Source: Candidatus Micrarchaeota archaeon | GTDB taxonomy: Archaea; Micrarchaeota; Micrarchaeia; Micrarchaeales; CABMGC01 | Direction: 5' to 3' | Length of the DNA: 33,555 nt | Assembly: GCA_027328265.1 (NCBI GenBank) | Contig: DAHVVD010000029.1 | Coordinates: 1-33,555 of the forward strand | In this document: positions 12,431 to 33,555 of the stretch, piece after piece | Layout of the letters: each line of letters begins with the position of its first letter | Position numbering within the stretch: position 1 is the first letter of the stretch | Position numbers and translations under genes: made by a program | The notes under the pieces: generated by a model | Told to the model about the DNA's origin: nothing | The model's database searches: none | What the model saw: the letters and a program-made list of their open reading frames with translations, nothing else

Positions 12431-15349
12431 ATGGCGTGGGGCAAGTTCGAAAATGTGAAAAAGCGCGATGGCACTGTAGACGAATTCAGGCCCGAGAAGA
12501 TAAACGAGGCCATAAGGAAGGCGATAGTTGCCACGAGAGGCAGTTCACTGGGCATAGACCTCAACGCCCTTACCGAGCATGCGCTGAAGAACATAGCGGT
12601 CAGATACGCAGGTTATAAGGCGCCTGACGTGGAAGGGGTACAGGACGTCGTCGAAAGGACACTCATGGAATTCGGCCTCTATGACGTCGCAAAGGCTTAC
12701 ATACTATACAGGGAAAGGCACAGGGAGATACGCGAGCGGAAGCAGCAGGAACTGCTGCAGGCAATAGAGCACGGCAATGTCAACGTAGTGAAGAGGAACG
12801 GAAGCAAAGAACGGTTCAAGGAGGCAAAACTCAAGGCATACCTATCGAGGGCATGCAAGGGCTTCGAGGGGGTTGTGGACGTAGAAATGCTGGCAAGGCA
12901 ATGCGAACTAGGGCTCTACGACGGGATAACTACGGCTGATATTTCAAAGCTGGCCATCATGTCATCAAAGGCGATGATAGAGCAGGATCTGGTCTCATAC
13001 GAGGCGATAACTGCAAGGCTCTTTCTCTCGTCTCTCTACAAGGAGGCCCTCCTCCCTGGATTCTCGGGCAACATGGAGAAGGCCTATCGCGATTCATTTG
13101 TTTCTTACATAGGGAAGTCAGTGGCCCAGGGCTTCCTTTCAAAGGAGATGCTCAATTTTGACTTGGAGAAACTCTCAAAGGCGCTCTCTATAGACCGCGA
13201 TCTCCTGATGAACAGCAGGGGCCTCCAGACCCTCTGCGACAGGTATTTCATAAAGGACAAGGAATCCTATCATGCAAGCGAGACGCCTCAGTTCTTCTGG
13301 ATGCGCGTGGCCATGGGACTCTCGCTTAACGAGAAGGACAGGGAAGCAAGTGCGATGCAGTTCTACGAGGCAATGTCATTGCTCAGGTTCGTGCCCTCCA
13401 CTCCTACACTATTCCATTCCGGCACGCCCAGGCCGCAGCTAAGCTCATGCTACCTTACAACAGTAGAGGACGACCTCACCCACATCTTCAAGGCGATATC
13501 CGACAACGCCCAGCTCTCCAAGTGGTCAGGAGGACTTGGCAACGACTGGACCAACATCAGGGCCACAGGCTCGCCAATAAAGAGCACAAACGTCGAGAGC
13601 CAGGGGGTCATACCTTTTCTTAAGATAGCCAACGACACTACAGTCGCGATAAACCGCTCAGGCAAGAGGCGCGGCGCCACATGCGCCTACCTAGAGACAT
13701 GGCACATGGACATAGAGGACTTCATAGACCTCAGGAAGACCACAGGCGACGAGAGGAGGAGGACTCACGACATGGACACTGCGAACTGGATACCTGACCT
13801 CTTCATGAAGCGCGTTATGAACGACGAGAACTGGACGCTCTTTTCTCCAAACGACGTGCCCGAGCTTCACCAGACCTACGGCAAGAAATTCGAGGAGAAG
13901 TACCTTGAGTATGAGAGGATGGCTGCCGAGGGCAAGATCCCACTCTTCAAGACAGTGCGCGCAGCCTCGCTCTGGAGGAGGATGATAACCTCGCTCTTCG
14001 AGACCGGCCACCCATGGATGGTCTTCAAGGATCCAGCCAACGTGCGTTCTCCGCAGGACCACGCCGGCGTGGTGCACAGCTCAAACCTATGCACTGAGAT
14101 AACCCTCAACACGGCCAAGGACGAGACAGCCGTCTGCAACCTCGGCTCGATAAACATACCGATGCACATACGCAACGGCCATCTCGACAGCGAGCTGCTG
14201 AAAGAGACGATACTGACAGCGATGCGCATGCTAGACAATGTCATAGACATAAACTATTATCCAACTCCAGAGGCAAAGAACTCGAACATGAAACACAGAC
14301 CGGTAGGTCTGGGCATAATGGGCTGGCAGGACGCGCTCTACGCGCTCGGGCTGAGCTTCGATTCTGAGGAGGGGGTGGAGCTCGCGGACGAGAGCATGGA
14401 AACCATCTCCTATTATGCCATATTGGCCTCGACTGAGCTCGCCAGGGAGCGCGGGCATTATGAGACATTCAAGGGCTCAAAGTGGGACCGCAGCCTACTT
14501 CCAATAGACACACTTGACATGCTTGAGCAGCAGCGAGGCATCAAGATAGACGTTCCGAGGACATCTAGGATGGACTGGTCTATAGTAAGGAACGCGATAA
14601 AGCAGTACGGCATGAGGAACTCGAACTGCATGGCCATAGCCCCCACGGCGACGATTTCCAACATAGCAGGCTGCTATCCTTCGACAGAGCCGATCTACAA
14701 GAACATCTACGTCAAGTCCAACATGAGCGGTGAATTCACCGTGGTCAACAAGTACCTCGTCGAGGACCTCAAGGCACTTGAGCTCTGGAATCGCACCACG
14801 CTCGAAAAGATAAAGGAGGCAGACGGCAACCTCCAGAACATTGAGTACATACCCCAGAAGCTGAAGAAGAAGTATAAGGAGGCATTCGACATAGAACCGG
14901 AATGGCTCATACGTTCAGCAGCGAGGAGGGCGAAGTGGATAGACCAGAGCCAATCGCTAAACATCTTCAGCGCCACCAACTCCGGCAAGCGCCTCGCCGA
15001 GATATACATGTACGCATGGAAGATGGGACTCAAGTCAACCTACTACCTGAGGACTATAGCGGCATCGGTGATAGAGAAGAGCACACTTGAGATTACAAAC
15101 AGGACAGCGAAGATAGTGATAGAGACCAAGATGAACGACGAGCAGAGGAACAATCCGCCGCTGCAGGAGAAGTCCGAGGCCGACGAGAACAACAGGATGG
15201 TCAGCGTTGGAGACTCCGGTTCGATGGCGCAGGTGCAGATAAAGAAAGAGGCATCGGCTCCAACTGAGCAGGAGACTGTTGAGGGTAAGGCATGCGGGGT
15301 TGACGGCCACCCGATGTCAGAAGAAGAGAACTGTGAAGCATGCCAGTAG
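12431..15349 (+). CDS. nrdA: ribonucleotide reductase class I alpha subunit with two tandem ATP-cones
   Basis: Two VxKRxGxxExF ATP-cone starts (VKKRDGTVDEF, VVKRNGSKERF), catalytic SSNLCTEI and QLSSCYL motifs, C-terminal CEAC pair, and an adjacent beta-subunit gene. Confidence 0.92.
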   Translation: MAWGKFENVKKRDGTVDEFRPEKINEAIRKAIVATRGSSLGIDLNALTEHALKNIAVRYAGYKAPDVEGVQDVVERTLMEFGLYDVAKAYILYRERHREIRERKQQELLQAIEHGNVNVVKRNGSKERFKEAKLKAYLSRACKGFEGVVDVEMLARQCELGLYDGITTADISKLAIMSSKAMIEQDLVSYEAITARLFLSSLYKEALLPGFSGNMEKAYRDSFVSYIGKSVAQGFLSKEMLNFDLEKLSKALSIDRDLLMNSRGLQTLCDRYFIKDKESYHASETPQFFWMRVAMGLSLNEKDREASAMQFYEAMSLLRFVPSTPTLFHSGTPRPQLSSCYLTTVEDDLTHIFKAISDNAQLSKWSGGLGNDWTNIRATGSPIKSTNVESQGVIPFLKIANDTTVAINRSGKRRGATCAYLETWHMDIEDFIDLRKTTGDERRRTHDMDTANWIPDLFMKRVMNDENWTLFSPNDVPELHQTYGKKFEEKYLEYERMAAEGKIPLFKTVRAASLWRRMITSLFETGHPWMVFKDPANVRSPQDHAGVVHSSNLCTEITLNTAKDETAVCNLGSINIPMHIRNGHLDSELLKETILTAMRMLDNVIDINYYPTPEAKNSNMKHRPVGLGIMGWQDALYALGLSFDSEEGVELADESMETISYYAILASTELARERGHYETFKGSKWDRSLLPIDTLDMLEQQRGIKIDVPRTSRMDWSIVRNAIKQYGMRNSNCMAIAPTATISNIAGCYPSTEPIYKNIYVKSNMSGEFTVVNKYLVEDLKALELWNRTTLEKIKEADGNLQNIEYIPQKLKKKYKEAFDIEPEWLIRSAARRAKWIDQSQSLNIFSATNSGKRLAEIYMYAWKMGLKSTYYLRTIAASVIEKSTLEITNRTAKIVIETKMNDEQRNNPPLQEKSEADENNRMVSVGDSGSMAQVQIKKEASAPTEQETVEGKACGVDGHPMSEEENCEACQ

Positions 15350-15361
15350 AAATGTGATATC

Positions 15362-16360
15362 ATGAAGCAAATACTTAACGCGTCTGAAATTGACCCCAAC
15401 AAGATCCTCCCGATAAAATACGAATGGGCCAGGACCCATTACAAGGCAGGAGTCGCGAACAACTGGGTGCCTGAAGAGATACCGATGCAGCAGGACATAG
15501 AGCTCTGGAAGAAGAAGGGAGGCCTGAGCGACGAGGAAAGAAGGATGATACTCTGGAACCTTGGCTTCTTCTCCACAGCAGAGAGCCTGACAGCCAACAA
15601 CATAGTACTCTCGATATACAGGCACATAACAAACCCAGAGTCGAGGCAGTACTTACTGAGGCAGGCTTACGAAGAAGCTGTCCACACCGAGATGTTCCTC
15701 TACTGCTGCGATTCCCTCGGCCTGGACCCTGACGAGATATACAACATGTACAATACAGTACCTAGCATAAAGGCCAAGGACGATTTCGTGGTTGAGCTGA
15801 CAAAAACAATGCTCAATCCCAACTTCAGCACCGTGGGGAAGGAGAACATCCAGACGTTCGTCTACGACCTCGTGGGCTACTACATCATAATGGAAGGAAT
15901 CTTCTTCTACGCAGGATTCGCGATGATGCTCTCGCTCCTGAGGAGCAACAGGATGGTCGGCGTAGGCGAGCAGTTCCAGTACGTGCTGCGCGACGAGACT
16001 GTGCATCTGGCATTCGGCGCCGACCTGATAAACCAGATAGTCGAGGAGAACCCAGAGATCTGGACAGAGGACTTCAAGAAATCCATAACAGCTTCGATAC
16101 TCAAGGGCGTGGACCTCGAGATAGCATACGCGAGGGACGCCCTGCCCAAGGGCATACTCGGCCTGAATGCCGAGACCATAAAGGAGTACATGGAGTACAT
16201 AGCAGACAGGAGGCTCGAGAGGATAGGACTCAAGAAGGTCTTCAACTCCGAGAACCCGTTCCCATGGATGAGCGAGATCATAGACCTCAGGAAGGAGAAG
16301 AACTTCTTCGAGACAAGGGTAACAGAGTACAAGAACCGCGGAGAACTCTCTTGGGAGTAG
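15362..16360 (+). CDS. nrdB: ribonucleotide reductase class I beta subunit (class Ic-like)
   Basis: Ferritin-like ligand motifs STAES, EEAVHTEMF, MEGIFF, RDETVHLAF. Phe occupies the radical-Tyr position (4 residues after the His of ExxH). Glu occupies the first-ligand position. Confidence 0.92.
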   Translation: MKQILNASEIDPNKILPIKYEWARTHYKAGVANNWVPEEIPMQQDIELWKKKGGLSDEERRMILWNLGFFSTAESLTANNIVLSIYRHITNPESRQYLLRQAYEEAVHTEMFLYCCDSLGLDPDEIYNMYNTVPSIKAKDDFVVELTKTMLNPNFSTVGKENIQTFVYDLVGYYIIMEGIFFYAGFAMMLSLLRSNRMVGVGEQFQYVLRDETVHLAFGADLINQIVEENPEIWTEDFKKSITASILKGVDLEIAYARDALPKGILGLNAETIKEYMEYIADRRLERIGLKKVFNSENPFPWMSEIIDLRKEKNFFETRVTEYKNRGELSWE

Positions 16361-16394
16361 CAAAACAAGCTACTTGCAGCGCAGCATCAACTAT

Positions 16395-16434
16395 AGCTTA
16401 TTAAAGATAGCTTTTTCTTATATATTCGATTCAC
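16395..16434 (+). promoter_or_regulatory. promoter module of pilin gene 1 (TATA-like ttattaaagatag), duplicated at 17366-17404
   Basis: The 40 nt upstream of the start are near-identical to the 39 nt upstream of pilin gene 2. The AT-rich box lies about 25-37 nt upstream of the start codon. Confidence 0.45.
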
Positions 16435-17313
16435 TTGGCGGCGTTCAAGCTCCAAAGCGCCATGGAGTACCTGATGACCTACGGATGGGCCATACTGATA
16501 ATTGCAGTTGTACTGGGTGCGCTCTTCACACTTGGATTCTTCAATTCTGCTAACCTGGCTCCAAAAGTGCCTCCTGGAAGCTGCAAGGTCTACAGACCGA
16601 ACGGCCCAGGAACCACGTCGTACATAAACACTGAAGGAACATGCAATAATGGTCTGCCGCAATATGCCGCAAAATTCAACGGGGCCTCGAGTTACATAAA
16701 CCTCGGCTCAGGCGTCTCTTCTTATACATCTGGAAACTTCGCGGTAAGCTTCTGGGCTTACGCTACAGGTGCTTCAGGTTCTACGGCAGTTTCTTCCGTT
16801 GCTTCTGGAGGATGGAATAGCAATCTCTTTGTCATTTATGTTGGAGATACAGCCATTAACGGCGCGGCTAAAGTATACTGGAATGGCGGAACCATAGCTA
16901 CAGCTGCTGCAGCCTCAACCGTAACGAACGGCTGGCACTTTTTTGCAGTTACGGATAATGGGGGCACCATGAATATATATATCGACGGAGCTAATGCCGC
17001 GGCCGGCTCAGTCAGCGGTACAATCACCGCGGTCTCTACGTTTATAGGAGCTGCTGATGATGATGGCAGCCCTACGCAATTTTATCCCGGAGAGATTTCA
17101 AATGTGCAGATCTACAACAGTTCTTTATCCCAAAACGAAATAACAAGCCTTTATGACGAGGGTATTGGTGGCGCGCCGATAGTACTACCATGGCTTGTGG
17201 GATGGTGGCCTCTGAACGGCAACGGCAAGGACTACAGCGGAGACCTCAACAACGGAGCTGTGACTAACACGGTATTCATAACTTCTTGGACATCCAGCTA
17301 TTCGGCACCATGA
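16435..17313 (+). CDS. type IV pilin-like protein (class III signal peptide) fused to a LamG/concanavalin-A-like domain
   Basis: N-terminus (M)AAFKLQSAMEYLMTYGWAILIIAVVLGALF is an archaeal prepilin-type signal. 'GNFAVSFWAY ... NGWHFFAVTDNGGTMNIYIDGA ... GEISNVQIYNSSLSQNEITSLY' is typical of LamG (Laminin_G_3-like) domains. TTG start aligned with the ATG of the paralog. Confidence 0.7.
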   Translation: MAAFKLQSAMEYLMTYGWAILIIAVVLGALFTLGFFNSANLAPKVPPGSCKVYRPNGPGTTSYINTEGTCNNGLPQYAAKFNGASSYINLGSGVSSYTSGNFAVSFWAYATGASGSTAVSSVASGGWNSNLFVIYVGDTAINGAAKVYWNGGTIATAAAASTVTNGWHFFAVTDNGGTMNIYIDGANAAAGSVSGTITAVSTFIGAADDDGSPTQFYPGEISNVQIYNSSLSQNEITSLYDEGIGGAPIVLPWLVGWWPLNGNGKDYSGDLNNGAVTNTVFITSWTSSYSAP

Positions 17314-17365
17314 TTTTACTTAAAATCTGCGGCAGCCCTGCCAAACAAGGAATCAAGATTAGTAA

Positions 17366-17404
17366 AGCTTATTAAAGATTGCTTTTCTTATATATGGGAT
17401 TCTC
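17366..17404 (+). promoter_or_regulatory. promoter module of pilin gene 2 (copy of 16395-16434)
   Basis: agcttattaaagattgcttttcttatatatgggattctc, compared with copy 1 agcttattaaagatagctttttcttatatattcgattcac. Confidence 0.45.
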
Positions 17405-17902
17405 ATGGCGGCATTTAAGCTCCAAAGCGCATTGGAGTACCTGATGACGTACGGATGGGCGATACTTATCATTGCCATAGTTATTGCCGCACTCTTCCTT
17501 ATCGGAGCATTCAACGGAGGACTAGGCACTTTCTGCAACGCCCAACCAGGCTACACCTGCTCAGTGACACAGTACAGCGCAGCTACAGGCAACCTAGTCG
17601 TGGTCATAGGCCAGAGTTCAGGCTCGTCATGGATGACTGCCAACGCTGCCTTTGTTCCTACAGCATCTGAGTCCAACGTAGTAAGCACAAGCTCTATTTC
17701 GGCCTTCTCTCAAAACACAGCCGCACTAGCAAACCTTGGCTCAGGAACCAGCGCAGCAGTCACGCTTCCAGTCTCAGCACCAGGCACCGTAGCAGGCTCC
17801 AGCACAACTGGTTACATCTGGGTGCAGTACACAACCGCAACCACCGGATCGGGCTCATCTGTGCTCGTCCAAGTGGCAACAGTCGGTGCAAAGGCGACAT
17901 AA
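17405..17902 (+). CDS. type IV pilin-like protein (class III signal peptide), Ser/Thr/Ala-rich
   Basis: MAAFKLQSALEYLMTYGWAILIIAIVIAALF is near-identical to the N-terminus of the upstream gene. The remainder is a small S/T/A/G-rich domain. Confidence 0.7.
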   Translation: MAAFKLQSALEYLMTYGWAILIIAIVIAALFLIGAFNGGLGTFCNAQPGYTCSVTQYSAATGNLVVVIGQSSGSSWMTANAAFVPTASESNVVSTSSISAFSQNTAALANLGSGTSAAVTLPVSAPGTVAGSSTTGYIWVQYTTATTGSGSSVLVQVATVGAKAT

Positions 17903-18053
17903 CCTTCGCCTTATTACATTAATTCGGCATATATAGCTTGCCAGCGCTCAAGCTCACAAAAGCCAAGTGCGCTCTAGAAAGCTGCCGAGAGGTCTGAAAA
18001 GCCAGAAAAGGCTAAATACCTATAGATATAAAGTTAATCTGCGATAGAAAAGC

Positions 18054-18350
18054 ATGAGCTACACGAACAGGAACATCGTCATAAACGAGCTTATAGGCCT
18101 GCGGGCAAGGGTCATCGGATCCTTAGACAAAAAGCAGAAGGGCATAAGCGGAAAAGTAACGGACGAGACCAAGAACACCCTCATGCTCGCAACGCAGAAA
18201 GGAGAGGTCCGCATCATAAAGTCCACCTCAACATTCAGGTTTTACACGCCTGACGGAAGCTTCGTTGTTGAGGGAAAGGAGATCTCCTTCAGGCCAGACG
18301 AGCGGACAGGAAAGGCAATGAAGTACTACAAGAGGAGAAAAGAAAGGTAA
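18054..18350 (+). CDS. rnp1: RNase P protein component 1 (Rpp29/Pop4)
   Basis: 'NELIGLRARVIGSLDKKQKGISGKVTDETKNTLML' is typical of Rpp29. The gene holds the canonical position just before uS17. Confidence 0.8.
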   Translation: MSYTNRNIVINELIGLRARVIGSLDKKQKGISGKVTDETKNTLMLATQKGEVRIIKSTSTFRFYTPDGSFVVEGKEISFRPDERTGKAMKYYKRRKER

Positions 18351-18388
18351 AAAGAAAGAGAAAAAGAAAGAGAAAATAATGTGAAATA

Positions 18389-18691
18389 ATGGCAGGTAAT
18401 AGCAAAGCCGATTGCAAGGACCCGAAGTGCCCGATACACGGAGGGCTGAAGGTTAGAGGCACCTCTCTCCAGGGCAGAGTCGTGAGCGCGAAGGCAAAGA
18501 AGACAGCAATAGTCGAGATCGACTACACGCGCTACATCAACAAGTACGAGAGATACCTGAGAAAGAGGTCAAGGATTCCTTCCTACAACCCTGACTGCAT
18601 AGCTGCGAAGGAGGGCAACGTCGTCACAATAGCAGAGACGCGCAGGCTCAGCAAGACAAAGTCCTTTGCGGTAACAGGAATAGTAAAGTGA
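18389..18691 (+). CDS. rps17: 30S ribosomal protein uS17
   Basis: CPIHGGLKVRGTSLQGRVVSAKAKKTAIVE, plus operon position. Confidence 0.9.
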   Translation: MAGNSKADCKDPKCPIHGGLKVRGTSLQGRVVSAKAKKTAIVEIDYTRYINKYERYLRKRSRIPSYNPDCIAAKEGNVVTIAETRRLSKTKSFAVTGIVK

Positions 18692-23846: not shown

Positions 23847-24719
23847 TCAGAAAGGCTCCTCTCCGAATTTTCTTGAGAGCGCTTCTATTCCTCCGCGCAT
23901 TACAAAAACATCTACCCCATAGTCCCTCTTAAGTATCTTGGCGAGATGAAGCGCCTCAGATTCTTCATAACTTATCAAGATGCAACCTTTCCAAGCTGCA
24001 ACTTTCTCCCTCTTCAGATCTGTCATCTCTCCGAGGCTCACCTTAATCACCTTCTCCTTATCGACTCCTAGAAGATTAACCACTTCCTGTACGGGCTCGA
24101 GCCCTAGCCAGATGAACTTCGCGCCTTTCTCCACCTTATCGAAAGCCTCCTTTAGCGTAAGCTCGCTCGCGCTCCTCTTCTCCTGGTAGACTGTGGTCTG
24201 GCGGGATGATCCCTCAACCTTTCCAAAAACCTCCTCGCGGCTCCCAGCAAGTGCCATGTTCTCCACCACCTCGGTGATGAAGGTCGAGATCTTGAGCGCG
24301 TCAGCTGGCCAGAGCCCATCAACCTCCCCCTCCTTCTTCACTGCCTGGCTGGAGTCCGCGAAGCCGTGTATGCGTATGTGCACCGACGAGAACAGCCTTC
24401 CCCTTGTCTTGAGAACGCTTATTATGTTGTTGTACGGTATGATGCTTATCTCCGAGGGCGAGCCGAGGTTGAAGCCGAAATAAAGCCCCCAGAAAGAGGG
24501 CATGGCTATTATCACCCGCTTGTTCGTTACTACTATCTTATTCGGCGCTAGGTCCCTCAGGAGGCTCTGCTTCACCTCTATTATGGTCTCCTCGTCCTTC
24601 ACAAGCGTGTCCTTGAGGGCGTTCAGGCACCTCTTGGTGTGGGCGTGCGGCTGGTAGTTTCCGCTCTCGACGAGCGTCTGCTTTGCCCTCTCTACAGCCA
24701 AGTGTACCTGAGACTCCAA
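23847..24719 (-). CDS. hypothetical protein: bacterial-PH-like (bPH_2-like) domain plus rhodanese-like C-terminal domain lacking the catalytic Cys
   Basis: 'IVVTNKRVIIAMP ... ISIIPYNNIISVLKTRGRLFSSVHIRIHG' resembles bPH domains. The C-terminal 'GCILISYEESEALHLAKILKRDYGVDVFVMRGGIEA' resembles a rhodanese core with Ser/Tyr where CxxGxR would be. Weak assignment made by eye. Confidence 0.35.
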   Translation of the reverse strand: MESQVHLAVERAKQTLVESGNYQPHAHTKRCLNALKDTLVKDEETIIEVKQSLLRDLAPNKIVVTNKRVIIAMPSFWGLYFGFNLGSPSEISIIPYNNIISVLKTRGRLFSSVHIRIHGFADSSQAVKKEGEVDGLWPADALKISTFITEVVENMALAGSREEVFGKVEGSSRQTTVYQEKRSASELTLKEAFDKVEKGAKFIWLGLEPVQEVVNLLGVDKEKVIKVSLGEMTDLKREKVAAWKGCILISYEESEALHLAKILKRDYGVDVFVMRGGIEALSRKFGEEPF

Positions 24720-24760: not shown

Positions 24761-25513
24761 TCAGTTCCTGTAGCCCCAGCTTCCTACGATCGCAAGAGCG
24801 AAGCCGAAGAGGCTCAGGACGAAGTAAAGATTATTCCCAAGTGTGATTGAGAGAAGGATGACGCCTGTAAGTCCACCGACGAGCCACGCGCCCCTGTTCA
24901 TGTTGCTGAAAGCCCCCAGGTTTATGAAGCTTATAAAGAAGAGTGCAATTGCACCTATCATCGCCGCTGAGAAGAGGAGGGGCTCAAGCGGTGCCACGCT
25001 GAGCACTGCGCCGAGATAGGCGCCGCCTATAGCAGTGAAGGCTATTAGCAGGTAGACTATGCTCGCGAGGAACTCGAAGAAGAACTTCTTCTTCCTGACC
25101 TCGGCATTAAAGGCGACCCTTCGCCTGTTCCTCCTCTTAAGGTAGGCATGGTGTCCTATCCCTCCGCTCGCGAAAGAGAGCGCAAATCCAATCAGCACAA
25201 CGAGCAGCATAGCATAATTGCCAAATGTCAGCGCAACGAGCGAGACGCCGACGAGAACAGTTATGAAGAGCGAGAGAATCACAGTCTCCTCCCTTATGCC
25301 GAAGAGGTTTGTAAAACTGAGCAGAAAGAGCACTATAGCGCCAACTGCGGCGACAAGATATGCGGCTATGTTCCAGGATGCGCCAGCCCATGCGGCGTAT
25401 GGGTAAGAGCCGCCGAACGAGAGCGCAACAATCAGCAGGTATGCCAGGCTACCTAGGAAGCCTAGCCCAAAGACCCTCAAAATATGAGCCTCATTATTCG
25501 TGCCTATAGCCAC
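24761..25513 (-). CDS. 8-TM membrane protein made of two tandem copies of a 4-TM module
   Basis: Both halves share a module start (FLGSLAYLLIVALSFGG / FLASIVYLLIAFTAIGG) with the neighbouring 126-aa protein (FIGSLIYLIVVFTGLGG). A basic linker (KRRNRRRVAFNAEVRKKK) joins the halves. Confidence 0.55.
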   Translation of the reverse strand: MAIGTNNEAHILRVFGLGFLGSLAYLLIVALSFGGSYPYAAWAGASWNIAAYLVAAVGAIVLFLLSFTNLFGIREETVILSLFITVLVGVSLVALTFGNYAMLLVVLIGFALSFASGGIGHHAYLKRRNRRRVAFNAEVRKKKFFFEFLASIVYLLIAFTAIGGAYLGAVLSVAPLEPLLFSAAMIGAIALFFISFINLGAFSNMNRGAWLVGGLTGVILLSITLGNNLYFVLSLFGFALAIVGSWGYRN

Positions 25514-25557
25514 CGTATCACAATACCCTTAAGAAATAAAGATTATTAAACCTGACT

Positions 25558-25616
25558 AGAAGAAAAAGAAAAGGAAGAGAAAAGGGAAAGAAAGAGAAAA
25601 ATAAAAGAAAGAAGAA
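25558..25616 (+). repeat. 59-nt homopurine tract (one T interruption) in an intergenic spacer; pyrimidine/oligo-T-rich on the coding (minus) strand
   Basis: Read directly: 25558-25601 is all A/G, T at 25602, and A/G again at 25603-25616. Confidence 0.9.
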
Positions 25617-25645
25617 TGCAGCTTTGTCTTATCCTGCCTTATCCT

Positions 25646-26026
25646 TTACATCGAGGATGCAGCTGCTCCCAGGAATGCAAGGACGAAGCCCAGCAAGCTT
25701 ACGAGCATGTAGGTAGAGTTTCCAGCCGTAAGGGCTACAAGCGCTATGCCGCTGATAGTGGCTGCCTTCATTGCGCTCGCCGTCGCCGTCTTTGCCATCC
25801 CGCCGAAGTTAGCGAAGCTCGTGAAGAAGAGTGTTATCGAGCCGATAGCCGCTACTCCGAAGAGTATAGTCCATGCCCATGCCGTATTAGCCTGGGTCAA
25901 CACCGCACCAGCATATCCACCCAGTCCTGTAAAGACTACAATAAGGTAGATAAGGCTGCCGATGAACTCGAGGCCGAATGCGCCCCATAGATTCTTAGAC
26001 TGTTTTGCCATTTTACCACGGTACAC
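25646..26026 (-). CDS. 4-TM membrane protein, single-module paralog of 24761-25513
   Basis: Four hydrophobic segments and shared motifs with both halves of the downstream gene. An alternative start is Met 26011. Confidence 0.55.
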   Translation of the reverse strand: MYRGKMAKQSKNLWGAFGLEFIGSLIYLIVVFTGLGGYAGAVLTQANTAWAWTILFGVAAIGSITLFFTSFANFGGMAKTATASAMKAATISGIALVALTAGNSTYMLVSLLGFVLAFLGAAASSM

Positions 26027-26171: not shown

Positions 26172-26242
26172 GGCCTTGGCCGGGAATCGAACCCGGTCCT
26201 GGGGGTCCACAACCCCCTGTGCTACCGTTACACAACCAAGGC
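26172..26242 (-). tRNA. tRNA-His (anticodon GTG), G-1 not genomically encoded
   Basis: Minus-strand read: GCCTTGG TT GTGT AACGGTA GCAC A GGGGG TTGTGGA CCCCC AGGA CCGGG TTCGATT CCCGG CCAAGGC C. The base 5' of G1 is T. The discriminator is C73. Confidence 0.85.
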
Positions 26243-26350
26243 ATCGCAGTATACTGCCCTCCTCAAATATATAAAATTTGGCACGTGCGTCCCAGCCCCT
26301 ATTAGCTAGTCTTTTAAATCATAACTGCATAGAGGGTAATAGGTGGCAGA

Positions 26351-27958
26351 GTGCTCTTCTCCCTGGTCTATACTCTGTTCTCGATACTGCTCTCAATAGG
26401 CAACATCAACGCACTCATACCCATAATGGTCATAATAATACTCATTGTAGCTGCTGCCGGCGCGAGCAGGGGCTTCAGCATCTTCAACATCTTCGGCGTC
26501 TCCTCCCTTCTCGGAGGCGGGGTAGGTTCAGGCGGAGGCTCGTCCAACCTGGCAAGGAGCGGCTACAGCCTCAGAGGATTCCTGGACATAAGGGGCACGC
26601 CGACGAATCCAAGGGGAAGGGCCACGCTTAAGAAAGTAGTCAATAAGTACTTCGGAAAAGAATCACCAGATAACTACCTCTATTCAATGTTCGGCGGGAA
26701 AAAGAAGATCACTTTCGGCGGCAGGGATATAGGCGTCATAAAATTCAAGCCAGGAAGCGACCAGAAAAGGGTGGCGAAACTTGCAAAGATAGACGCCGAG
26801 GCAAGGTTCCTGTATGACCGATATAACTCCGGGTCAGATCTCCACAAGCCTGGCACAGAAGTCATATCCGAATCCGAGCTGAAGAATCGCCAATCAATGA
26901 CCAGCGGAAAATTCATAAAGATGGCAACCGCTCCTTTTTTCTTCAGCAGCGCGCGCTACTGGGCTGAAGGAGGCAAGCGCTATGCCGAGGAGAGGAAAAA
27001 AGCAGAGGTTACCTCGTACAAGAAGATAGACATGTTGAATGAGAAGGAGGTTCTGCAAGGAGAGATAAATCAACTAAAAGCAAGGTTCGCTTTGTCTAAG
27101 AATGAGATAGACAGAATGATTATAATGCGGGACAAGGGCAACCTGCAGAAGCGCCTGAAAGCAATCGATGAGTCGCTGGGAGAGATCAAGAAGGCCTCCA
27201 GGCTCTCATTCGACCAATTCAGTTGGGCCTATGCAAAACAGCACAACAGACTGTACGGCCCGCCTGACAGCAACATCCGACAAAACCTGATGAACCCGCT
27301 GTATGGATTCTCAATATCCAACACCACAAACCGCATGAAGGAATCAGCAGATGCAGTGTCCAATGCGGTTAAAGGGGTGACACTTGGCACAACGGTTGGC
27401 ATGGCGCACCTTGTGGCGGGAGCCACCGGGGCCAACAAGAACGAGCGGGTGGCCAAGGCCCTGCACGACCTAAGTGCCGGAGCTGCCAAGGCTCAAGGCC
27501 TGGCTCTTTACGGGCCTGGCACCTATAAGACCAATCCAAGGACAGGAGAGATGACTGAGCCAGCGGAGCACCTGACCGCATCAGAGGCCAGAGAGAAGGC
27601 CAAAGCCATGACCGAGGAGTTCCACGAAAGGCTTGCAGACGCCGCTGAAGAATACAAAAGAGGCATAGAGAGTCGCCTCAAATCCTACGAGAAGGCCAAG
27701 GAAAAAGGTCATGTCAGCCAAGCTGATATCGAGAGCATAGAGGGGCTAAAGCAGGGCATATCATATGCCCTTGCCTACAACAAGGTCAAGGGCGTGTACC
27801 AGAAAGAGGCAAGGGAGAGGAGGAAAAGGGCGGAGGAGGCAGAGGGGAATGAGGATAGAAAAGCGAGAGAAGAGGAGTCAAGGGCATATGAAAAGGAGCG
27901 CGCCTCAAAGGCCAGGGAAAAAAGAAGGAGAAAAGGCGACTCCGAAAGGGAAAGTTAA
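26351..27958 (+). CDS. hypothetical N-terminally membrane-anchored coiled-coil protein with Gly-rich hinge and highly charged K/R/E tail
   Basis: Two N-terminal hydrophobic segments, then GGGVGSGGGSS. Heptad-like stretches (EKEVLQGEINQLKARFALSKNEIDRMII ... LQKRLKAIDESLGEIKK). C-terminal ~60 aa are almost only K/R/E/A. GTG start preceded by SD-like aggtgg. No family recognised. Confidence 0.6.
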   Translation: MLFSLVYTLFSILLSIGNINALIPIMVIIILIVAAAGASRGFSIFNIFGVSSLLGGGVGSGGGSSNLARSGYSLRGFLDIRGTPTNPRGRATLKKVVNKYFGKESPDNYLYSMFGGKKKITFGGRDIGVIKFKPGSDQKRVAKLAKIDAEARFLYDRYNSGSDLHKPGTEVISESELKNRQSMTSGKFIKMATAPFFFSSARYWAEGGKRYAEERKKAEVTSYKKIDMLNEKEVLQGEINQLKARFALSKNEIDRMIIMRDKGNLQKRLKAIDESLGEIKKASRLSFDQFSWAYAKQHNRLYGPPDSNIRQNLMNPLYGFSISNTTNRMKESADAVSNAVKGVTLGTTVGMAHLVAGATGANKNERVAKALHDLSAGAAKAQGLALYGPGTYKTNPRTGEMTEPAEHLTASEAREKAKAMTEEFHERLADAAEEYKRGIESRLKSYEKAKEKGHVSQADIESIEGLKQGISYALAYNKVKGVYQKEARERRKRAEEAEGNEDRKAREEESRAYEKERASKAREKRRRKGDSERES

Positions 27959-28038
27959 AGCGGCGCCGAACAAAACACCTAGACTGCTTCTTCCCCTTTG
28001 ATAAAGATAGCGATTATATTATTATAGTTTATCATAAT

Positions 28039-29541
28039 ATGGGCTTCATGCAAAATAGAAGCAGGATTTCGCTTCTGCTACTTTCGTTCGTTCTCATATC
28101 TGCCTTCACTTTTGTCGGTGCGCAATTCATTTCCACCCCATCTCCAACACCAACCCCTACTCCTAACCCAACTCCAGCCCCGGCCCCAGCGCCTGCTCCA
28201 AGCCCACTTCCAGTTTCCTCAACTTCTACACCTACAACTTCAACCTCCTCAACCACAACATCTCCACTTCCTCAAGGACCAACTGCTGAATGCACTGCGA
28301 TTTTTGGAAGTGGCACCTCAGCCAGTACCTCTGCGCTCCAGGCGCTTGGTCTCTCTGCTGCCATATCTAGGAACGCAATCTCAGCCTCCCTTCTTGCGCT
28401 CATCATCTCTTTCGATGTAGTTGGCATAGGCTACATGATAAGCAAGCTTATTCCTGAATCGAAGGTCAGGGGCTGGCTCGGCAAGGAATACTGGGAGGTT
28501 GCAAAGTCTGTTATACTGGTTGGCAGCATATTTTCAATACTAACATTCATCAGCGGCTTAGGCATCTCGCTGACAGGCAGCGGCACCCCTGGAACATACT
28601 CATCAAACATCCAGAACCTTGTCTCCAGCTCAGAAAGCTACCTATGCACAGTAAACAACCAGGTGAACCTCGCAATAAACAACGTAGTCCCGCTGATAAT
28701 AGGGATAGGTTTCCTGAAGAGCATTCAAATAAATTATGAAGGATTCCCTATACCTCCTGTTCCAATTCCTATAGCCCCCGAACTCCCTGTCCTCAGGGCA
28801 GGCATCTCCTTCAAGCTCTTCGACAATTTGCTTTATGGCGTCGCTTTCACCTATTTGGGCTTCGGTCTATCTGCATTCCTAGATATGCTTCTCTTCCTAA
28901 TCATTCCAGCTAAAGTCTTTTTCGCGGGCCAGGTGCTCATACTTCCATACTTGGTGAGCTTGGGACTTATAGTGCTGATACCTACAGGCCTCATAATGCG
29001 CGCCTTCCCATTTTCCAGAGGCATAGGCGGCACCCTGATAGCTTTCGGAATAGGCATTGCCATTGTATGGCCCACCATTCTAATACTTTTCAATGCTCCA
29101 ATATCCAATTACTTCTGCAGAGTCCTATCAACGAACTACTGCCTGCCTCTTGGTCCGTCCCCTTCAGCTGCGCAGACTACCATCCAGCTCTACAACGCGC
29201 CTGAGACAATCCAGGCTACTAGCGAATGCAATGGCGCCACCTTGGGCCTTGGAGCCACCGGGAACGTTCCCGGAGGGTTGCTCCTTGCACTAGTTTGCCA
29301 GCCGCTTGCCAATTGGTGGATCTCTACTGGCTATACTGAATTCTCATTGCCCTGGCAGAGTGCCATATCATTCTTCCCCTCGCTCAACGTCCTGCTAGAC
29401 AATAGCCTATACTTGGATCTCCAATTCTTCGTGCTCTTCATTCTGGATCTTCTGATCGCTTATACAATAACCGACAACATTGCAAAAATGCTGGGCGGCA
29501 CGATCCGCGTTAGCCTTGGCAATAAGCTGAAACTGGTGTAA
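28039..29541 (+). CDS. paralog 1 of uncharacterised polytopic membrane protein family (signal peptide plus Pro/Thr-rich linker)
   Basis: Signal peptide ...FTFVGA|QF, a 50-aa P/T/S/A linker, multiple TM segments, 6 Cys, shared motifs (KEYWEV ... ; MRAFPFSRGIGG ... VWP), and C-terminal tail LGGTIRVSLGNKLKLV. Confidence 0.7.
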   Translation: MGFMQNRSRISLLLLSFVLISAFTFVGAQFISTPSPTPTPTPNPTPAPAPAPAPSPLPVSSTSTPTTSTSSTTTSPLPQGPTAECTAIFGSGTSASTSALQALGLSAAISRNAISASLLALIISFDVVGIGYMISKLIPESKVRGWLGKEYWEVAKSVILVGSIFSILTFISGLGISLTGSGTPGTYSSNIQNLVSSSESYLCTVNNQVNLAINNVVPLIIGIGFLKSIQINYEGFPIPPVPIPIAPELPVLRAGISFKLFDNLLYGVAFTYLGFGLSAFLDMLLFLIIPAKVFFAGQVLILPYLVSLGLIVLIPTGLIMRAFPFSRGIGGTLIAFGIGIAIVWPTILILFNAPISNYFCRVLSTNYCLPLGPSPSAAQTTIQLYNAPETIQATSECNGATLGLGATGNVPGGLLLALVCQPLANWWISTGYTEFSLPWQSAISFFPSLNVLLDNSLYLDLQFFVLFILDLLIAYTITDNIAKMLGGTIRVSLGNKLKLV

Positions 29542-29543
29542 TT

Positions 29544-30821
29544 ATGTTTTGGAACCTACTCACTACCAATTTCCTAAACCTGTGCAGTGCCAACATTTCC
29601 TACCTCAACCACAACAACTGGATAGGGATAACTCTGCTTGTCGTTCTCACCTTCATGATGGTGGGCGCAGCGGCTTACGGTCTCAGCGGCATCCTTCCAG
29701 TAAACATGAGGGAGAAGATAAGGGGCTCTGTCAAGTATGAATACGTCCAAGGCGTCTTCAGCATTGTGCTCGTAGCCGCGATCTTCGCAATCTCGCTCAC
29801 GGCATGCAGCGTTGAGGGCGCCATAACCTCAAGCGCTACCAAGTTAGGCGGCCCTCCCTTGGGAGTCACGCCAGCCTGCGGCACATCTTACACCGATCCA
29901 TTCCAGTTCTCTAACTGCTACGTCGGAAACCTCCTCTTCTCAAAGGGCACAGCCCTGGTATCGGGAATGATATCTGAAGGCTTCTTCCTCTTTGCCGAGG
30001 GCAATCTCCTCTACTTCGTTGTCAACAGCGCGGCTCAAAAACTGCCCAAAGCGGCAGGTGCAGGCACTCTCTTCGGAGCCATAAACTGGGGTTTCGACAT
30101 CTCTCCCTCAATATCCAATTCGGAGGGCCCTGCAGAAATATTCTACGATTACAGTTTCATCTTGGTCCTCGTCTTCGAGACGATAATAGTAGCAACCTTC
30201 GGCCTTCTATTTCTGCTCTTCCTGAGCCTCGGCTTCATAGAGCTGCTCTCACTCACGCTGGTCCTTCCCGTAGCCATAGCCATGCGCTGCATATCCTTTG
30301 CAGGCCCCAAATTGAAGGAAGCCTCCAACGCATTCATAGCAATCGCAATAGCCTTCTATTTTGTCTTCCCTGTAACGATAGCGATGAACTACTACATAGT
30401 CAACTGGACCTATTGCTCCAACGGCGGGGCGTGCAATCCATACGCAGAGAGCTATCTCAGCACCTATACGCTAAACACGCTTCCGCTAATTAACCTCTTC
30501 TCAAACCCCGAAAACGTAGTTCTGGGTTCAGGAACAGGAGCCGGAGGCCTCAACCTTAACCTGCCTCTCAACTTTTACGGCGCGGTGATGCAGAGCAACG
30601 GCGGTTTCATAAACATGGTAGCTAACATCTTCGTCGCAGCGGTAGCCCTGCCCAACGTTATGAACAACTACACCACACAGACCGCGCAATTCGTCTTCGA
30701 GGGCATCTTCCTGATAGCACTTGACCTTGCGATAACCGTGGGCTTTTCGGTTGGATTTTTCAAGGGGCTTGAGACAGTAGGTCAGATACTGGCTGTAGGG
30801 CCGGTCTGGGGAGGAGGTTAA
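29544..30821 (+). CDS. paralog 2 of uncharacterised polytopic membrane protein family
   Basis: Starts 2 nt after the upstream stop. Shares the motifs (REKIRGSVKYEYVQGVFSIVLVAAIF; AMRCISFAGPK ... FVFP). No obvious cleavable signal peptide. Confidence 0.7.
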   Translation: MFWNLLTTNFLNLCSANISYLNHNNWIGITLLVVLTFMMVGAAAYGLSGILPVNMREKIRGSVKYEYVQGVFSIVLVAAIFAISLTACSVEGAITSSATKLGGPPLGVTPACGTSYTDPFQFSNCYVGNLLFSKGTALVSGMISEGFFLFAEGNLLYFVVNSAAQKLPKAAGAGTLFGAINWGFDISPSISNSEGPAEIFYDYSFILVLVFETIIVATFGLLFLLFLSLGFIELLSLTLVLPVAIAMRCISFAGPKLKEASNAFIAIAIAFYFVFPVTIAMNYYIVNWTYCSNGGACNPYAESYLSTYTLNTLPLINLFSNPENVVLGSGTGAGGLNLNLPLNFYGAVMQSNGGFINMVANIFVAAVALPNVMNNYTTQTAQFVFEGIFLIALDLAITVGFSVGFFKGLETVGQILAVGPVWGGG

Positions 30822-32333
30822 ATGGAGAAGACAGCACTGCTTTACCTCTCTGTTTTCATCCTTGCCTCATTGTCAATGCCAATCCTCACCAACGCTCAGG
30901 GCCCTCTCCCAGGAACATCTCCTGGGCCGGTTTCCAACCCTTCCTATCCGCTAACATCGAACGTCTCAGTCTTCTATAACTGGCTGCCTGTGATCATAGT
31001 GGCGGTCTTTGCAGCCGTGGGCCTGACAGCAATCTACTACGGACTGGGAGCGTTGCTTAACAACCAGAGGGTAAAGACCAACGCGATAAATGAATTCTAT
31101 CAGGTACTGGGCACCGTGGTTGTGGTAATAATAATACTGGCTATCTTCAGCGTCTATGGAAGTGCCATAATAGCCGACGGGCCCCTGACTACCGCCCTTG
31201 CCAACATCTGCGGCAGCAACCAGCTAGGCTCTGCCAACACAATGGTGAATTTCCTAAGCAGCAATTCGCTTGACACCGCCACTACAGGGCCAACAAGCCA
31301 GATATGCGCCGATATTGTCGCGGTAGGCCAGGGCAGCGGCATAACCTCGAAGATAGACTACGGCCTCGGCGCCACTTACGCCATAATAGCAAACCTCACC
31401 AATCAGGAGGCTGAGAGCCTAAATGCCGTAAACGTATTCGAAACCTATGCCTCAACCCTCAACAGCTTCCTTCCCACTGAGAGCCTCTGCTGGCCAGCTA
31501 CATGCGCCGACACGAATCTGTTGCCTTCAGGCTACATAGTATACCAATACAGGCCCTGGTCCCTGTACGACAAGATAAGGGGCATGACGCTTTACGTGGG
31601 CGCCGAGGCCCTCCTCTCATTCTACATCAGCATAATGCAGCTCATAGTGATAATAATGCTGCTCTTCGCCTGGCCATACATACTTGCAGCAGGCATAATC
31701 CTGAGAGCCTCATTCTTCACGCGCAAGGCAGGCGGCCTGCTCATAGCGATAGTTATCGTCGCTATTATCCTGTATCCCCTACTCAACCTTTTCGAGTATG
31801 CATCGCTGAGCAACACCCTGTCCAGTCCCATAGGTGCGAGCAAGATACCCGCATTCACCCTCAAGGGCCAGGCGCCATGTTCATTGACCTCGCTATTTAC
31901 AGGATGCGGAATAAAAAATCCAGCTCCTGTGATAGATTACACCGACACCAAGCTCAACTTCTATGTGCTGCCCAACCTTGAATATGTACTGAACCTAGAT
32001 GGCTGCTGGCCGCCGGCAGGAAATGTCTTCCTCTCTGATGCGCTGATCGCGGGAGCCTACAGCATACCTGGTTACGCCACCTTTCTTGCCATAAAGGACA
32101 TCATAGGCGCATTCGTAAGCTCGCTCCCATCGCCTCCGATACCATGGTTCAGTTGCAATCCAGGTAACGCCATACAATCCATTGTCGACTTGGCGAAATT
32201 CTATGGCATGGTCTTCGTCACTACTGTTCTCCTGCCTGTATTGAACATACTGATACTCCTCTCCGGGGTCAAGAACATCTCCAGCCTGCTAGGCGGAGAT
32301 ACCAGGATACTGGGACTTGGCAAATTGGTTTAG
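30822..32333 (+). CDS. paralog 3 of uncharacterised polytopic membrane protein family
   Basis: ATG abuts the upstream TAA and is preceded by a strong SD (ggaggaggt). Signal peptide ...ILTNA|QG, 8 Cys, motif LRASFFTRKAGG ... ILYP, and C-terminal tail LGGDTRILGLGKLV. Confidence 0.7.
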   Translation: MEKTALLYLSVFILASLSMPILTNAQGPLPGTSPGPVSNPSYPLTSNVSVFYNWLPVIIVAVFAAVGLTAIYYGLGALLNNQRVKTNAINEFYQVLGTVVVVIIILAIFSVYGSAIIADGPLTTALANICGSNQLGSANTMVNFLSSNSLDTATTGPTSQICADIVAVGQGSGITSKIDYGLGATYAIIANLTNQEAESLNAVNVFETYASTLNSFLPTESLCWPATCADTNLLPSGYIVYQYRPWSLYDKIRGMTLYVGAEALLSFYISIMQLIVIIMLLFAWPYILAAGIILRASFFTRKAGGLLIAIVIVAIILYPLLNLFEYASLSNTLSSPIGASKIPAFTLKGQAPCSLTSLFTGCGIKNPAPVIDYTDTKLNFYVLPNLEYVLNLDGCWPPAGNVFLSDALIAGAYSIPGYATFLAIKDIIGAFVSSLPSPPIPWFSCNPGNAIQSIVDLAKFYGMVFVTTVLLPVLNILILLSGVKNISSLLGGDTRILGLGKLV

Positions 32334-32340
32334 TGATCAT

Positions 32341-33555
32341 ATGAGCAGAACCAAAATCTTTTATATCGCAATCTTCCTCCTCTCGCTAGCGCTACTGCCC
32401 TCCTTTTCCAATGCACAAACAGCCACGCCTGGGTTCGGTTTCGGCTCCTACTGCTCGAGCTTCTATCAGAATGCCAACGGAGCAGTGAGCAACGCGTTTG
32501 TCAAAGGGGTCTTCTCCGGCGGGATAGTCTCGCTAGCCCTGCTTATCGTGCTCTTCGTTGTTGTCTCCCTCTCGGTAGTCTACGGCATAGGCATTGGATT
32601 CGGGATAAACAAGCTGACCGAATTCGCGAAGACCGAGTACATAGAGAGCTTTTTCAACATCGTGCTAATCATAGTGCTTGCTGGCTCATTCATGACTATC
32701 GGCAAATACGCGCAGTTCTTTACCAGTCTCGCCTCGTCAAACCTGCCCTCTACCAGCCAGCCAAACCTTGGCGGAAGCGTCATAAGCATGTACGAAGGCA
32801 TATGCACAGGGCTCATATACAGCCAGATACTCCCATCTATCGGCGCAATCTATTCCATATATGCTGCACAGATGCCGTACTCTGCGATCTCCAGCTTAAA
32901 GATAAACCTCAACATTCCGGCACTCACGACTGGCATGGCATCTGATTTCATTCCGTCATTCTCATTCGGCCCCTGGGAAGGCCTCAACATATATGGGGAC
33001 GTGCTGCTTTTCGAGTTTGCGCCTCTTGCCATGATACTCTTCCTTGGGATTTCTGTAATCTTCCTTTTCTACCTGATCTATTTCCTTTTTCCCGTCTTCC
33101 TTTACCTCGGTGTCCTGCTGCGCTCCTTCCCATGGACCCGCGCCGCTGGCGGCTCGATGCTCGCGCTTTTCATCTCCTTCTACATAATTTTCCCTGCGCT
33201 CTACTATCCATTCTCAGTGCTTGGCAATACGTATCTTTCAAGCCTCGGCTCCGCTTCACTCCAGCAGGAGATATGCTCCCTAATGGGCCAGATAGGAAAC
33301 TGCAAAAATTACCAATCCCCAGGGACATTCAGCACCATATTCAACTATGCATCTACACTCTTTTCCAATTTCTTCACTGCGTCCAGCTCGATCTTACTCG
33401 CATTTACCGGCCCAGGGAACCTCTTCATTGTAGTGAGCGAGACTTACACCAACGTTATCGCAGCATCGATACTCAAGCTCCTCGGCCTGACGATAGCATT
33501 TATCATCTCCTTCGACCTTCTCGAGGCTCTTGGAGACTTCCTTGGCTCCCCATCG
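32341..33555 (+). CDS. paralog 4 of uncharacterised polytopic membrane protein family (3'-truncated by window end)
   Basis: Not in the ORF track because no stop falls in the window. I translated 405 codons with no stop: MSRTKIFYIAIFLLSLALLPSFSNA|QTATPGFGF ... Motifs NKLTEFAKTEYIESFFNIVLIIVLAGSF and LRSFPWTRAAGGSMLALFISFYIIFP. Confidence 0.65.
   Translation, partial: MSRTKIFYIAIFLLSLALLPSFSNAQTATPGFGFGSYCSSFYQNANGAVSNAFVKGVFSGGIVSLALLIVLFVVVSLSVVYGIGIGFGINKLTEFAKTEYIESFFNIVLIIVLAGSFMTIGKYAQFFTSLASSNLPSTSQPNLGGSVISMYEGICTGLIYSQILPSIGAIYSIYAAQMPYSAISSLKINLNIPALTTGMASDFIPSFSFGPWEGLNIYGDVLLFEFAPLAMILFLGISVIFLFYLIYFLFPVFLYLGVLLRSFPWTRAAGGSMLALFISFYIIFPALYYPFSVLGNTYLSSLGSASLQQEICSLMGQIGNCKNYQSPGTFSTIFNYASTLFSNFFTASSSILLAFTGPGNLFIVVSETYTNVIAASILKLLGLTIAFIISFDLLEALGDFLGSPS

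Follow-up and report, generated by a model that had tools for sequence, protein, structure and literature searches.

A Micrarchaeales-specific membrane protein with a polycationic tail as a candidate inner link of a cell-contact apparatus

In type IV secretion systems (T4SS) the bitopic membrane subunits VirB3, VirB8 and VirB10 form the connection between VirB6, the channel, and VirB4, the ATPase. Archaea are without VirB3 and VirB8 homologs (PMC11868833). DNA is imported by the Ced system in Sulfolobales and by the Ted system in Thermoproteales, both encoded in chromosomal clusters in which a HerA/VirB4-like ATPase is accompanied by polytopic proteins and by small hydrophobic ones. Very large surface proteins whose genes are linked to an apparatus for transfer or contact are also known from organisms with a host-dependent or mating lifestyle, namely, the adhesins of Gram-positive conjugation, such as PrgB of pCF10, and the giant SPEARE proteins of Nanohaloarchaeota. 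The protein described here bears on the question of how DPANN archaea, including Micrarchaeota, attach to their hosts and how material passes between the two. This protein, which we call T, is encoded in a 33,555-nucleotide (nt) stretch of a Candidatus Micrarchaeota archaeon (GCA_027328265.1, contig DAHVVD010000029.1, positions 1 to 33,555; hereafter the window) by an open reading frame (ORF) of 535 amino acids (aa) that starts with GTG and precedes an array of six paralogous polytopic membrane proteins. We present T as a candidate inner link of the cell-contact apparatus in these tiny symbiotic archaea.

Like VirB3, VirB8 and VirB10, T is predicted to be membrane-anchored and is encoded beside polytopic proteins and a HerA/VirB4-class ATPase, and by this analogy it is conceivable that T connects membrane parts to a soluble ATPase. 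It differs from these subunits in that its bulk would be cytoplasmic and disordered, with no folded periplasmic domain, and in that T is found in one order whereas the gene cluster is phylum-wide. The neighbourhood of T, like Ced and Ted, combines polytopic and small hydrophobic proteins with a HerA/VirB4-like ATPase in a chromosomal cluster, but neither system has a component with the architecture of T, and the match of the paralogs to VirB6, given below, is not significant. T shares with TatA/TatB a layout in which a short N-terminus on the outer side leads into a single membrane helix, then into a hinge with Phe and Gly, and ends in a long, charged tail in the cytoplasm; the motifs and the genomic context differ, the analogy is one of build only, and the Tat family profile did not match any of 24 T N-terminal modules at E up to 5. 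Direct identities were also considered. T was rejected as a VirB3, VirB8 or VirB10 because there was no profile match and its AlphaFold2 (AF2) model has only helices and disorder, as a T4SS coupling protein (VirD4/TraG) because no P-loop NTPase domain was found in the Pfam and NCBIfam scans, and as an archaeal type IV pilin with a class III signal peptide because its N-terminus is uncharged, RG follows the helix and the module acts as an internal stop-transfer anchor in the fusions described below.

We propose that T is an order-specific inner arm of an envelope apparatus that would combine a giant adhesin with a T4SS/Ced-like machine, and that it does not belong to the core of the array. The probability of this explanation is about 0.5. 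The membrane helix, together with the FSxFNxFG/Gly hinge that follows it, would be the working interface and would pack, in the membrane, against the six-paralog complex and/or the anchor of f2, as we call the giant surface protein; the helix would offer its AAAG face of small residues and its invariant Pro, Arg and Gly as the intramembrane interaction surface. The polycationic tail would be a flexible arm on the inner face that links the apparatus to acidic partners, which may be the soluble HerA/VirB4-like ATPase or else nucleic acid or the membrane surface and its lipids. The functional statements on T, including its binding to f2 or the array and the binding target of its tail, we infer from sequence and gene order. 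The gene and its parts are as follows.

26351 to 27958, plus strand: the whole T gene, 535 aa, member of an unnamed Micrarchaeales-specific family whose ortholog in the cultured strain A_DKE, Micr_00435, is annotated as a hypothetical protein
26351 to 26470, plus strand: residues 1-40, conserved membrane helix with LSIGNINALIP (14-24), a hydrophobic core, a small-residue AAAG face and R40 of the invariant Arg-Gly (from AF2 and the alignment)
26471 to 26545, plus strand: residues 41-65, conserved GFSIFNIFG (G41 completes the Arg-Gly motif; probably interfacial), with near-invariant F, F and G columns, then the Gly-rich hinge GGGVGSGGGSS
26546 to 26953, plus strand: residues 66-201, membrane-proximal basic region, predicted to be disordered, net charge ~+14 (from charge and AF2)
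26954 to 27385, plus strand: residues 202-345, helical middle with YGPPDSNIRQNLMNPLYG, common only to close relatives (29 of 212 family members)
27578 to 27955, plus strand: residues 410-535, two long predicted helices, of which 485-529 is an ER/K-type polyampholyte, single-helix-like and unique to the species (from AF2 and composition)

The evidence for a family comes from a HMMER scan of 1.8 billion cluster representatives at a threshold of E <=0.001, which found 224 representatives of T relatives with total lengths of 75-1,137 aa. The short fragments in this library are mostly truncated gene calls. All 224 match solely via query residues ~8-75, at their own N-termini, and the consensus of this module is LSxGAINALIP-(8 aliphatic residues)-AAAGxTRG-FSxFNxFG-xTLxGxG. 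Mean column identity is 52% in the alignment of the N-terminal module, where G, P, I, A, R and G are invariant, as against 9% in the full-length alignment. Tails in the family span 120-900 aa and are not alignable; the middle region of T (200-345) was seen in 29 of 212 members and its K/R/E end in none of the 212. The charge of the tails was analysed in the 129 members with tails of at least 120 aa, shorter ones being left out, and all 129 are net positive, with a median of +33 and a range of +7 to +70. These tails have ~19% K+R, essentially no Cys, a low hydrophobic content and a low density of glycosylation sequons, and they are predicted to be helical or disordered. In the first 80 residues past the membrane module the family median net charge is +12. 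The net charge of T itself is +29, which ranks 7 among the 444 ORFs of at least 150 aa in its genome (574 kb, 62% complete). Since the module is conserved and the divergent tails are always positive, it is the membrane module and the composition of the tail that are under selection, and not the tail sequence.

No confident match to a known family, related to membrane complexes or not, was obtained in the Pfam, NCBIfam, PDB profile or fold searches. Pfam gave no family for T and its neighbours, and NCBIfam matches were far below the cut-off (16 vs 502 bits). A Pfam scan of 24 N-terminal modules had nothing with E <0.05, the best PDB profile matches of the N-terminal module were antibody chains (E 0.76), and the best Foldseek match of the T model had an E of 1.6, no match being expected at a predicted template modelling score (pTM) of 0.35. 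Literature searches found no description of the T family, of Micr_00435 or of its neighbour Micr_00434. The family is unnamed and is annotated only as hypothetical, and the T family, the topology of T and its link to f2 appear to be new here. A hypothetical protein becomes a defined family whose membrane module is conserved, whose topology is fixed and which has two genetic partners that recur, f2 and a secretion-like machine.

The f2 proteins are 1,600-3,300 aa long and have a signal peptide, an ectodomain rich in S, G, N, T and Y, a C-terminal helix and a short basic tail; no Pfam match was found for them. They resemble PrgB and the SPEARE proteins in size and in the genetic tie to an apparatus, a likeness by description only, and PrgB and the SPEARE proteins are without a separate or fused polycationic cytoplasmic arm like T. 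In a neighbour survey of 55 loci and ~100 genomes, T is directly 3' of f2 on the same strand in 18 loci. By a manual tally f2 adjoins T in ~32 of 64 genomes, including three fusions, and is the commonest neighbour of T. In Ca. Micrarchaeum sp. A_DKE the order is Micr_00434 (f2; L032 3915-9953) and then Micr_00435 (T), and one genome, G086, has two f2-T pairs. In the genome of the window f2 is on another contig (C17:15887-22581) and runs off the contig end. A 524-545-aa protein without a family lies between f2 and T in a few genomes (L002 6579-8216, L016 1199-2773).

The in-frame fusions of f2 and T were found in three genomes of two genera (G078, 3,361 aa; G081, 2,562 aa; G157, 1,881 aa). Each fusion has an N-terminal signal peptide and a giant ectodomain, the T module as the sole later membrane span and a T-type tail. 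The fusion ectodomains have a net charge of -24 to -83 and 1.5-1.8% Cys and are rich in N-glycosylation sequons, while the tails have a net charge of +15 to +20 and are Cys-free. The three fusions therefore give T an N-out/C-in topology with a cytoplasmic tail, which agrees with the invariant Arg just past the helix and with the membrane-proximal basic region. On this evidence we read T as a single-pass membrane protein with its N-terminus outward and its tail in the cytoplasm, and an earlier reading made from the sequence alone (the sequence-only reading), in which T was docked at the membrane with a charged cytoplasmic tail, gains a topology from the fusions. The C-terminus of unfused f2 has the pattern NYxxAPNxT...IGxYxLSxG(D/N)IS followed by a helix and a basic stop. 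In this it resembles a C-terminal sorting signal, which also has a motif, a helix and a basic tail, and it may undergo processing. The junction in the G157 fusion reads ...FEIGAYGISLKYTYIFIPVIIIVILILAARGS..., and three genomes of the same genus hold the split pair. Since the T module has LSxGAINALIP before its helix and unfused f2 has LSxG(D/N)IS before its own, the junction is at the shared LSxG register and the T module replaces the f2 anchor.

The phyletic range of T was determined in 151 Micrarchaeota genomes, each at least 80% complete, which are related and not independent samples and many of which are fragmented assemblies. Of the 70 genomes from two families of a single order, Micrarchaeales, 64 have the T module, mostly in single copy; it was not found in 80 genomes from 18 other families of the phylum. 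The giant protein f2 has the same restricted range (51 of the 70 genomes of the order and 0 of the 80 elsewhere). The six-paralog array, on the other hand, is phylum-wide and was found in 135 of the 151 genomes. Because the array is phylum-wide and T and f2 are restricted to the order, T and f2 are order-specific additions to an older machine. The T-bearing loci from public genomes are nearly all labelled Micrarchaeota, and among them is the complete genome of A_DKE. In the co-culture of A_DKE the transcript level of Micr_00435 was 2.06 transcripts per million (TPM), and those of Micr_00434, SMC and CysRS were 0.95, 1.43 and 1.95 TPM, respectively (PMC8975820 Suppl. Data S5). As 2.06 TPM is comparable to the values for SMC and CysRS, Micr_00435 is transcribed at a housekeeping-like level.

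The second recurrent partner of T is the array, of which the window holds the following part.

28039 to 33555, plus strand: paralogs 1-4 of the tandem six-member array of polytopic membrane proteins, which goes on with paralogs 5 and 6 and then two membrane proteins of ~275 aa on a longer contig

On this longer contig of the same locus the order is T, the six paralogs and then f3 and f10, which are the two ~275-aa membrane proteins. In a genome of the same genus (G002) one contig carries T, paralogs P1-6, f3, f10, one gene on the opposite strand, f2 (3,277 aa) and f5. T adjoins the array in 19 of the surveyed loci; it is at the head, as in the window, in 16 loci and at the tail, before f3-f10 and the ATPase, in at least three. 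In loci L057, L044 and L003 T is between the array and the f3-f10-ATPase genes. In other orders the gene order of the clusters is the small genes with four transmembrane helices (4-TM), the six paralogs, f3, f10 and the ATPase, with no T-like gene. T was not found without the array in any genome, and thus co-occurrence with the paralog family, on which the sequence-only reading of T as the cytoplasmic partner of the downstream complex depended, was observed. That proposal holds in part: the linkage recurs, with T at the head or the tail of the array in arrangements that are independent, but the array is phylum-wide while T is limited to the order, and f2 is the commoner neighbour. The spacer between T and the first paralog is 80 nt long with 36% G+C vs ~50% locally. 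A TATA-like TTATATTATTATA is located 13-26 nt 5' of the ATG of the first paralog (region 28012-28038), which suggests that the first paralog or the array has its own, possibly leaderless, transcript, and therefore co-transcription of T with the array is not implied.

The motor of the cluster was recognised in L057, where a 504-aa protein matches DUF87 (HerA) with 59 bits, AAA_10 with 49 and P-loop_TraG with 40, all above the curated cut-offs. A 68%-identical copy is in the genome of the window on contig C25 and is followed by a 99-aa protein and a partial 126-aa match at the contig end. From these profile matches the cluster is accepted as a secretion-like machine with a HerA/VirB4-class motor, and no recognisable coupling protein was found in the neighbouring cluster alongside this ATPase. 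The AF2 model of one paralog has a pTM of 0.74. Its best Foldseek match in the PDB is TTYH2 (E = 0.04), R388 VirB6 (7o3v_G) comes at rank 18 with a non-significant E of 3.3, and a PDB profile search with the paralog family gave no match; on these results homology of the paralogs to VirB6 is not claimed.

The T ORF is a real gene. Its coordinates and length and the 80-nt AT-rich spacer in front of the paralog array agree with what the sequence-only reading had given, and among the possible starts only the GTG retains the family-conserved N-terminus. The signals in front of it, read from the sequence, are as follows.

26265 to 26346, plus strand: putative promoter and ribosome-binding region of T, inferred from the sequence, with a TATA-like AAATATATAAAA at 26265-26278, ~75 nt 5' of the start, and a Shine-Dalgarno-like GGTGG at 26342-26346, 4 nt 5' of the GTG

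A tRNA-His(GTG) gene is located at 26172-26242 on the minus strand, between the divergent small membrane-protein genes and T, and therefore the promoter region of T is only ~108 nt long.

The AF2 model of T, made from a 76-sequence alignment, has an overall predicted local distance difference test score (pLDDT) of 66.7 and the pTM of 0.35 mentioned above. The helix 2-40 is predicted at a pLDDT of 81-91; from residue 55 the pLDDT is <50, with disorder at ~55-204, and long helices (202-281, 410-451 and 457-534) then lead to the C-terminus. Several features pointed out in the sequence-only reading were recovered, namely, the hinge GGGVGSGGGSS at residues 55-65, the K/R/E string at residues 485-529 and the absence of a Walker A or other enzymatic motif, the Pfam and NCBIfam scans of T having shown no enzymatic domain. 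The two N-terminal hydrophobic segments of that reading were not seen as two clear spans, since AF2 shows one long helix at 2-40 and the short FSIFNIFG. Its coiled coil and heptad-like stretches are also without support. Long helices are indeed predicted, but in a test of a/d hydrophobic periodicity against shuffles, which is crude and not a trained predictor, the periodicity of the long helices was reached by 451-1000 of 1000 shuffles and that of helix 287-302 by 167 of 1000, and only residues 322-344, a stretch of 23 residues, stand out. Residues 486-534 are 67% E/K/R and 2% hydrophobic, and therefore no coiled-coil seam is possible there. This segment is modelled as one helix with a pLDDT of 95-98 and has the E/K/R content, the lack of a hydrophobic seam and the confident isolated helix of an ER/K single alpha-helix (SAH). 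The K/R/E end thus looks like an ER/K SAH, which it resembles in composition and in its predicted helix, or like a polyampholyte. It is absent even from close relatives and would be a local trait and not a function of the family. In one subfamily (P0024, P0026, P0032, P0041, P0046 and relatives) the hinge reads AGINPGGK(S/A)SIAGK, which fits the Walker A pattern GxxxxGK[ST]; this string is not conserved in the family, is not followed by an NTPase fold and is absent from T itself.

Some observations weigh against T as an inner arm of the adhesin apparatus. In about one third of the genomes T has neither f2 nor the array beside it, or the contigs do not reach far enough to show it. The tail sequence is not conserved and the tail is perhaps a mere spacer. 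Other orders run the array and the ATPase without T, which makes T dispensable for the core machine. The joint loss of T, the array and f2 was rejected as an argument because the genomes without all three retain the cluster ATPase, one match is at a contig edge and assembly gaps are possible; the joint absence is ambiguous, with some matches at contig edges. The hhalign comparison of the T module with the f2 anchor is weak (12 columns, P = 0.005), and a common origin of the two anchors is a lead and not a result. It could be argued that only the membrane module matters, that it inserts, sorts or positions the f2 anchor or is the remnant of a duplicated f2 anchor, and that the tail is an unconstrained disordered spacer. 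The tail is hypervariable in length and sequence, as would be expected in that case, and the register of LSxG plus helix is common to the f2 C-terminus and serves as the fusion junction. We nevertheless consider this explanation improbable, because the tails of at least 120 aa in the 129 analysed members are all net positive, which argues for selection on composition. T could also be chiefly a membrane-tethered nucleic-acid binder whose polycationic tail keeps DNA or RNA at the membrane, either the substrate receptor of a Ced-like DNA conduit or a nucleoid tether, with the link to f2 being secondary. In favour of this are the universal net positive charge, the Gly/Arg-rich membrane-proximal stretches that many members carry and the HerA/VirB4-like ATPase in a cluster with no recognisable coupling protein. 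However, the charge suits lipid or acidic-protein binding equally well, the profile scans found no known nucleic-acid-binding domain, the conserved part is the membrane module and not the tail, and the f2 fusions would be left unexplained; we regard this role as doubtful, although less so than a tail without any constraint.

A slightly better case, still an unlikely one, can be made for T as a dedicated cytoplasmic scaffold subunit of the six-paralog complex that is co-expressed with the array. Its position at either end of the array, its place between the array and the f3-f10-ATPase genes in L057, L044 and L003 and the finding that it never occurs without the array are what such a subunit would show. 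On the other hand, the array is in 135 of the 151 genomes and T in one order only, the clusters of other orders are without a T-like gene, f2 adjoins T more often than the array does, and the first paralog is preceded by its own TATA-like box. Finally, the GTG start and the low-complexity sequence would be compatible with an ORF that is not real or not expressed. This is hardly credible, since 64 of the 70 genomes of the order carry the gene, mostly in single copy, its N-terminus is strongly conserved, and this conservation already refutes it; in addition, a Shine-Dalgarno-like GGTGG lies upstream and the ortholog Micr_00435 is transcribed in culture.

The inner-arm explanation, which we prefer, can be extended, although the odds are well against the extended form as a whole. 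In it f2 and T would make up a two-part transmembrane tether, sometimes in one chain, with the glycosylated adhesin outside, the conserved helix in the membrane and the polycationic arm inside, and this tether would dock on the T4SS/Ced-like machine and couple contact with the host to the passage of DNA or other cargo. If true, this obligate symbiont would have an "outside-in" link peculiar to its order. The proposed complex is directly testable, since Micr_00435 and the adjacent Micr_00434 belong to the one Micrarchaeon with a stable laboratory co-culture. T itself could yet turn out to be a minor accessory of this lineage.

The genes on the other side of T in the window are on the minus strand.

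24761 to 26026, minus strand: two small 4-TM-unit protein genes (250 aa and 126 aa), divergent from T, of a family that recurs near T and, in other orders, stands immediately before the array
23847 to 24719, minus strand: a 290-aa protein with a weak match to a bacterial PH domain (bPH_3), between a ribosomal protein operon and the small membrane-protein genes

In L057 the region 3' of T (12981-18577) encodes the ATPase, two small hydrophobic proteins (99 aa and 126 aa), a protein of 241 aa whose matches are weak and of the coiled-coil type, and one of 809 aa without a family. The counterparts of these genes in the genome of the window are on contigs C25 and C38, and the cluster is split there.

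In genome G153, from another order, a 1,654-aa protein (L076 11371-16767, minus strand) divergently adjoins the six-paralog array. It has a signal peptide, a Cys-containing ectodomain of ~190 aa, one membrane helix, a tail with a net charge of ~+90 and a C-terminal CxxC...CxxC zinc ribbon. It was rejected as a remote homolog of T because its hidden Markov model score is not significant, and it is taken as an architectural analogue of a fused f2-T. A lone seventh paralog of ~335-350 aa is located far from the array in near-complete genomes, even where the array was not found (G024:C1:289734-290249, G010:C3:316998-318041, G032:C1:658504-658992 and others). The first paralog of the window (28039-29541) has a near-identical counterpart in L001 (11689-13128) that is 21 aa (63 nt) shorter. 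The 63-nt difference is presumably in a Pro/Thr/Ala-rich low-complexity linker and would be a strain-level length polymorphism.

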